Source: Narcine bancroftii
Taxonomy: Eukaryota
Reading direction: 5' to 3'
NCBI RefSeq assembly: GCF_036971445.1
Contig: NC_091479.1
Location: 75,516,001-75,580,000 of the forward strand
Length of the DNA stretch: 64,000 nt
The position numbers were made by a program, and so were the translations under genes. This document shows positions 8,773-9,461 of this stretch, in pieces; positions within the stretch are counted from its first letter, which is position 1, and the number at the start of each line of letters is the position of its first letter. The notes under the pieces are model-generated. The model had not been told where the DNA came from. It worked only from the letters and a program-made list of their open reading frames with translations, and searched no databases.

Positions 8773-9461
8773 ACTTTCTATCACTTGCATCTGATGACTT
8801 CTGCCTTCACTAAGTTATTCAAGTTCATTCAAGGCATCCGCAAGATCCGCAGAAATCTGTGACGAGGTTCTTGTTTATCTGCAATTCACGAACAGTCACC
8901 AGTAGCTGTTGATTTTGTTGTTGTAGTTCCTCAACATTACAGTAGGTCACCGGATGTTGAGAAATTACTTCAGAGTAACTGCTTATGTCAGAAGAGCTAA
9001 GTTCATCTTCATGAAAAATAGGATTTCCTCGTGCATCTTCTAGTTCAAACAAAAACACCCTGTTCTGCTGTGAAAGATCTGACACTTGCATTTTCTATCA
9101 CTGATTCTCCCTGTGGAGTAATGAAGCATGCTTATTCACCTCATCAGTGCATTTTTGTAAGTGGCAAATTTCCTTCATGCCTTCTAATTTAGCTGAGAGA
9201 TTTACCACAGATTCTCATGCTTGCGCTTCAGAAGTGGAGCTTCCATCTTTGCTTCTTTCACAGTTTCATCTAAATATTTATTCACTCTCTTATTTTACTG
9301 TTTTGCCAATAGCAATTAATTTTGGGCTTATACATCTCTGTGAACCTCATTCCAGGTTTCACAATCTTGGCCACAGCTGCTGCAGTGGGCGACCATAGCT
9401 GCCAGTTCCTCAGTGTGGTGGTTCCTTTAAGCTTTGTAGTTGAAAGAAGATGGTTTGCATC
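8773..9461 (-). pseudogene. TPR: Processed fragment of nucleoporin TPR (coiled-coil region) captured inside the LTR element
   Basis: Frameshifted translation [170 protein letters not shown] is colinear with recalled TPR ([54 protein letters not shown]). No introns; several stops. Confidence 0.92.

Follow-up and report, generated by a model that had tools for sequence, protein, structure and literature searches.

The TPR-like sequence in the 64,000-nt stretch of Narcine bancroftii DNA analysed here (the window) belongs to a dead, non-autonomous Gypsy element in which pieces of two host mRNAs, PPFIA2 (liprin-alpha-2) and TPR, replace most of pol, the pieces having probably been captured by template switching and spread as neutral passengers with the aid of a helper element. 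The initial annotation had read the segment as a transduced TPR gene, a reading that is supported but was incomplete, as it overlooked that the capture took place elsewhere and missed the PPFIA2 cargo, the large family to which the copy belongs and an inversion within the copy.

The window copy and its setting

The minus-strand translation of positions 8773-9461 is TPR-like, with matches to the Pfam TPR domain (E 4e-17) and to whale-shark TPR (P0001), and the host TPR gene was located at G000:C11:85.65-85.72 Mb on the minus strand. The limits of the piece, earlier noted as about 690 nt, were refined to 9460 to about 8776. Alignment to the host gene revealed that it consists of six consecutive host exons, which lie within 85.666-85.672 Mb, and that all five exon joins are crossed without a break, with introns of 82, 2448, 366, 306 and 1563 nt missing and both ends of the piece falling mid-exon. 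Window and host TPR differ by 10.2% over 674 columns, the window piece is broken by stops and several frameshifting deletions, and inspection of its sequence found no poly(A). The earlier description of a dead, multi-exon and intron-free fragment is thus borne out, and the contrary expectation of a single-exon or intron-retaining segment fails, since the piece spans several exons and lacks introns.

The TPR piece (8776-9460, minus strand) forms part of an element bounded by a target-site duplication (TSD) that reads ATGAT on the left (8500-8504) and ATGAC on the right (12406-12410). TPR is followed on its own strand by the element's 3' UTR (8707-8775), which is common to RT-bearing helper elements and begins at an (A)GTGGAA microhomology beside the helper pol stop, by a polypurine tract (PPT) recognised by sequence (8696-8706), identical in helper copies, and by a 3' LTR of about 190 nt with TG...CA ends (8505-8695). 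TPR, tract and LTR therefore share the minus strand as proposed, with a gap of about 70 nt between TPR and the PPT where about 65 bp had been claimed. The first 158 nt of the 5' LTR also lie on the minus strand (12248-12405). The intervening 2.8 kb (9460-12247) reads on the plus strand and contains the 3' end of the 5' LTR (9460-9515), a PBS-like site recognised by sequence, TGGTGTCAGA (9516-9526), broken gag and protease (9565-10713) ending in ATGGAAGA (10706-10713), where other family copies switch to PPFIA2, broken RT and RNase H without integrase (10714-11985), and the 5' part of a spliced PPFIA2 cargo that crosses two exon joins (11986-12247).

The two ends of this block carry inverted duplicates of 26 nt of LTR sequence, the first 26 nt from 9460 repeating 12273-12248 with 3/26 differences. 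Together with the strands of its parts, this duplicate indicates that the middle block is inverted relative to the family order; about 270 nt of the cargo typical of the family is missing at the inversion end. An assembly artefact is an unlikely cause of the inversion, as the 26-mers differ at three sites and a single TSD pair encloses the entire element. One X1 contig spans the 12247/12248 breakpoint but extends no more than 30 nt past it in one direction, and X1 and X3 may derive from the assembly's own sample and so be non-independent. The 95% interval obtained when dating the inversion, 0.02-0.30, is too broad for a date.

RVT_1 and RT_RNaseH_2 domains were found in the window copy with Pfam, the latter below its curated cut-off. 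The RT-RNase H segment was present in 0/85 other sampled cargo copies, and the window copy stood alone among 40 scored matches in its join of RNase H to PPFIA2. Its gag-protease region carries cargo-type bases at 16/17 diagnostic sites, and it has a 19-nt deletion known from part of the short family. As the simplest reading, we infer that the window copy is a later recombinant of a helper-subtype RNA and a cargo RNA, which would account for its RT-RNase H; it could also be a remnant of a longer form that dates from the first capture. Within gag, positions 10049-10110 hold a 30-nt tandem duplication whose copy number varies among family members.

The element lies within a BicD-family gene on the plus strand, exon 1 of which is at G000:C23:75.4677 Mb and the next exon at about position 22730 of the window. 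These positions, both on the plus strand, place the element in intron 1 with TPR antisense to the pre-mRNA, while the PPFIA2 piece of the copy is in sense. The antisense arrangement asserted at first therefore stands for a BicD-family gene, presumably BICD1 rather than BICD2, and intronic transcription might yield TPR-antisense RNA. A location upstream of the gene was ruled out, the Pfam model beginning at exon 2 and exon 1 lying 48 kb before the window. Matches to a BicD paralogue at G000:C11:170630847-170631881 and 170632278-170632436 contain one stop each, possibly reflecting intron edges or assembly errors. Elsewhere in the window are two copies of a LINE 3' end (14293-14620 and 18893-19637), the second containing an open stretch of 234 aa that resembles RT (18893-19597); one family copy, L015, adjoins a LINE similar to these 3' ends.

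A dispersed family with two spliced cargoes

DNA searches yielded at least 43 TPR matches (283 candidates, 40 scored) and at least 40 PPFIA2 matches (221 candidates, 40 scored), and 86 distinct copies were analysed: 50 loci, of which 3 were dropped as duplicates, and a further 39 taken from the match lists. The usual layout is LTR-PBS-gag-protease-PPFIA2-TPR-UTR-PPT-LTR, with PPFIA2 present in 81 copies, TPR in 79 and both in 74. Copies are dispersed in the genome; the ten that could be measured end to end are 2.6-3.6 kb long, and five of these ten have exact 5-bp TSDs, with a single mismatch in one more. A 24-mer spanning the PPFIA2-TPR join gave 90 matches (at most 2 mismatches) on 13 contigs and a reversed control gave 0. 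As 29/85 sampled copies match this 24-mer, we estimate the family at roughly 260 copies, and at least 90, from a sample biased towards similar copies.

The PPFIA2 cargo, overlooked at first in the region 12015-12247 of the window, derives from a host gene at G000:C23:91.39-91.53 Mb (minus strand), on the same contig as the window and about 16 Mb away; a N. bancroftii liprin, P0003, matches the G000 exons at 85-100%. In the family this cargo comprises 540 nt from five exons, corresponding to P0003 residues 311-490, and the TPR cargo comprises 765 nt, corresponding to residues 353-607 of whale-shark TPR. No intron remains at any of the five TPR and four PPFIA2 exon joins (28-75 copies per join), and 3/73 copies have a large insertion near one of them. 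At one site, in the G000:C11:85668256-85668670 region (codons K-H-T-H-I), host TPR reads H-I and the copies and whale-shark TPR read S-L, so the dead copies appear to keep the older host state.

Each of the three joins in the chimera contains microhomology, which the initial annotation had proposed to look for at the TPR junctions. The pol-PPFIA2 join has 8 nt, ATGGAAGA, common to pol and PPFIA2; the PPFIA2-TPR join has 6 nt, AAGGAA, common to spliced PPFIA2 and TPR; and the TPR-UTR join has 6-7 nt, (A)GTGGAA, common to TPR and to the UTR of the helper next to its pol stop. The joins were seen in 61/86, 48/86 and 54/86 sampled copies, respectively. The joins bear on the idea that a processed pseudogene generated by a LINE, or a segment duplicated at the DNA level, was inserted into a Gypsy element. 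The LINEs common in the window lend this some colour, and we consider it highly improbable: the cargo has no introns, replaces pol rather than interrupting it, ends mid-mRNA on both sides and shows microhomology at all joins, and the poly(A) tail and TSD of its own expected of an L1 processed pseudogene were not found on it.

The outer two joins fall mid-exon. The PPFIA2-TPR join, however, can be placed exactly at a PPFIA2 exon end (GATAAG followed by gt), which counts against template switching at this point, and an AG precedes the TPR side, as would suit splicing of the PPFIA2 donor to a cryptic AG in a TPR exon, whether this took place in a precursor of the element or by trans-splicing of a host RNA that was then captured in a single step. 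We regard such an origin of the middle join as unlikely. The next PPFIA2 exon begins with GAA, so that the spliced mRNA has 6 nt in common with TPR across the join; moreover, there is no pyrimidine tract at the TPR site, 0/86 copies represent a precursor with intervening sequence, and splicing would cover this one join, the two others being mid-exon.

Under the template-switching model that we favour, host TPR and PPFIA2 mRNAs would have been co-packaged in a virus-like particle, and minus-strand synthesis would have jumped from the element 3' UTR to TPR mRNA, from there to PPFIA2 mRNA, and back to the element at the end of protease. The chimeric product would keep all cis signals and may have been copied in one burst soon after capture, spread by a helper element bearing RT and integrase with the cargo as a neutral passenger. 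The window copy would then have arisen by later recombination of cargo RNA with helper RNA, its middle block becoming inverted at or after insertion.

Candidate helpers are present in the genome, as relatives bearing RT and integrase share LTR, PBS, gag and 3' UTR with the cargo family. No cargo was found within the fetched flank of eleven other RT-bearing loci, integrase follows RNase H in both helpers tested (L070 and L074), and cargo-type diagnostic gag/PR bases occur in 2/11 helpers. In L072 and L078, pol runs directly into the 3' UTR and PPT with no env between, and hence these loci give no sign of an env-bearing infectious helper. Two further loci are of unusual structure: L077 (1500-3221) is a copy of helper type that has RT-RNase H, lacks integrase by deletion and leads directly into the 3' end, with cargo-type gag bases and no cargo, while L076 (2760-4252) has a partial integrase followed by a second, different Gypsy-like integrase and may be a nested or recombinant element. 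Across the sample, short private deletions number 187 in the PPFIA2 cargo and 281 in the TPR cargo, which suggests a strong small-deletion bias of the genome.

The joins were also found in other sequencing runs. Run X5, from a second organism, contained the protease-PPFIA2 join on 1 contig and the PPFIA2-TPR join in 3/8 pieces among those listed; the family would thus not be confined to one species, if X5 is as it seems. Contigs bridging the PPFIA2-TPR join made up 2/8 listed pieces in each of X6 and X7, with none clean in X8, at a depth of 5-14; in X7 the host TPR contig reaches a depth of 293. As these runs are only guessed to be RNA and carry no strand information, the contigs are not counted as expression or as a sign of co-transcription from the LTR. 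When an open stretch across the join served as protein query, it gave 12 matches, for lengths 84-270 only, 0/12 of them covering both halves, which is no proof of absence.

Timing, reading frame and selection

LTR pairs of 13 copies differ by a mean of 0.16, half of the JC-corrected value being 0.091; for these 13 copies the distance between cargo and host is 0.103 (JC 0.11); the window pair differs at 23/153 and 9/53 sites. A TPR fragment much younger than the LTRs, which would have spoken against capture, is therefore not what we find, and the similar ages of cargo and LTRs place the capture just before the burst. Near-fixed differences between host and copies comprise 25 synonymous and 2 non-synonymous changes (one short codon window excluded). 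At non-CpG sites they amount to 0/749 at 0-fold and 8/155 (0.052) at 4-fold positions, the latter close to the copies' own decay of 0.060, which again leaves little time from capture to burst. This pattern fits a host that has changed at synonymous sites since the capture, and a single burst that followed the capture closely.

Individual copies depart from the family at 0.069 of 0-fold versus 0.060 of 4-fold sites, with equal N and S rates, and the dN/dS calculation called for at the outset gave a value of about 1. Variants shared among copies have an N:S ratio of 27:11, where neutrality predicts a share of 0.75 (p=0.57), with no deficit of replacements. Decay of the copies is neutral and no selection is seen on the cargo, although selection on the founder branch would be hard to detect after so star-like a burst.

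Judged by the modal distances between anchors, the stretch between the gag ATG and the PPFIA2 join is in a single frame, and the modal net length of the cargo is 0 except for shared deletions. With a stop two codons after TPR, a single frame of about 826 codons runs from gag ATG to stop, based on modal lengths, the mode being weak in some intervals (e.g. 8/35, 13/35), and the founder likely encoded a Gag-protease-liprin-TPR protein of this length. A 1-nt deletion in 53 copies, considered as a family frameshift, proved to be an alignment artefact, as net length is 0 in 55/73 and whale-shark TPR agrees with the copies. Shared PPFIA2 deletions of 99 nt and 84 nt keep the frame, and 21/50 scorable copies have in common a deletion of 19 nt that shifts the frame and removes the last ~40 codons of TPR. 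The 99-nt and 19-nt deletions occur in each of their four possible combinations (2, 10, 7 and 5 copies), as expected of recombination between co-packaged RNAs, although recurrent deletion could also produce them.

The long frame raises the question of whether the fused protein was of use. Human TPR residues 436-606 are reported to be necessary and sufficient for pore localisation (PMC6640030), and the family cargo, residues 353-607 in whale-shark numbering, appears to take in this stretch, in keeping with the early estimate of about 355-595 including the pore region. A founder Gag-protease-liprin-TPR protein might have competed with host TPR at the pore, so that unspliced RNA of the element was exported more easily or particles were guided to pores. 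Consistent with this, the frame stays open through both internal joins to the stop, the shared 99- and 84-nt deletions preserve it, and the whole reported pore-targeting stretch is kept, all of which count against a mere passenger; variants of the protease motif match CpG decay of D-T-G. According to the sections consulted of the respective reports, TPR depletion raises export of unspliced Gag/Pol-CTE RNA, a restraint that requires pore localisation (PMC3258255), and Ty1 depends on the nuclear basket (PMC5909446).

Several observations nevertheless make a useful fused frame improbable. Among chance microhomologies, 177/285 between PPFIA2 and TPR (at least 6 nt) and 8/17 between pol and PPFIA2 (at least 8 nt) are in frame, together ~0.3, and because chance joins are so often in frame the fusion is weak evidence of use. 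The 19-nt deletion removes the end of TPR in many copies, shared variants show no constraint, and in the part of PMC3258255 that treats it a TPR fragment comprising the N-terminal and middle regions restored retention and did not block it. Neither shared variants nor deletions revealed selection on the cargo frame during replication, with low power for the founder. That a Gypsy element stole the pore-docking domain of TPR as part of Gag-protease, and that counter-defence against retention of unspliced RNA drove a burst of hundreds of copies, accordingly seems to us a long shot. Were the fused frame ever useful, it would represent a retrotransposon turning a host nuclear-pore domain against host RNA retention.

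Relation to known systems

Several features identify the element as Ty3/Gypsy, including LTRs with TG...CA ends, a predicted PBS, a PPT and a short TSD, the domain order PR-RT-RH-IN with RT_RNaseH_2 and Integrase_H2C2, the integrase being that of helpers L070 and L074, and collinearity with a related single-ORF Gag-Pol polyprotein (P0185). The cargo has the features of an LTR-mediated retrocopy, namely an intron-free partial mRNA between LTRs in place of an internal ORF, microsimilarity at switch points, and secondary retroposition with common switch points. A literature search of partial coverage, with Repbase and Dfam outside its scope, found no paper on a PPFIA2-TPR Gypsy family. With parents, helper subfamily, switch points, deletion markers and a hybrid in one genome, template switching and co-packaging can be studied directly. 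In practical terms, hundreds of ~90%-identical TPR and PPFIA2 fragments can mislead annotation and read mapping, and they might conceivably be a source of small RNAs directed at two conserved genes.

Defective transducing retroviruses depend on a helper and carry spliced host sequence fused in frame to gag. By modal lengths the ray family has such a fusion too, whereas it has no env and no sign of infectivity, and its cargo is no known oncogene and shows no selection. Transducing retroviruses mentioned in PMC4299795 include RSV and Hz4-FeSV. The LTR-mediated retrocopies of Tan et al. 2016 (PMC5131818), as described in the accessible portion of that paper, show microsimilarity at switch points with a median of 6 bp and have in common with the ray family the replacement of internal ORFs by partial mRNA, multi-gene chimeras and further non-autonomous cycles. 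As described there, those cases are young and present in single or few copies, unlike the ray chimera, which has at least 90 copies, joins gag-protease in frame and has recombined further.

As far as the excerpts consulted describe them, two other systems are the nearest cases. Maize Bs1 (PMC5131818, PMC13317346) resembles the ray family in that an LTR element combines parts of several host genes, with the same switch points in all copies; it numbers 1-5 copies and is reported to be transcribed and translated, whereas the ray family belongs to a vertebrate, is much more numerous and has decayed. In CrocERV29 (KIT-ligand) and CrocERV31 (nectin3), a host mRNA was likewise captured by a vertebrate LTR element and amplified, but these are ERVs that each carry a single, nearly complete gene, number 9 and 6 copies and are reported to be under purifying selection, in contrast to a Gypsy family with two partial genes and no detected selection (PMC4299795). 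LTR-mediated retroposition is thus a known mechanism, and a two-gene cargo at such copy number is unusual. The ray family provides a clear vertebrate case of two-gene capture by Gypsy, amplified far past the 1-9 copies given in the consulted parts of the published comparison cases.
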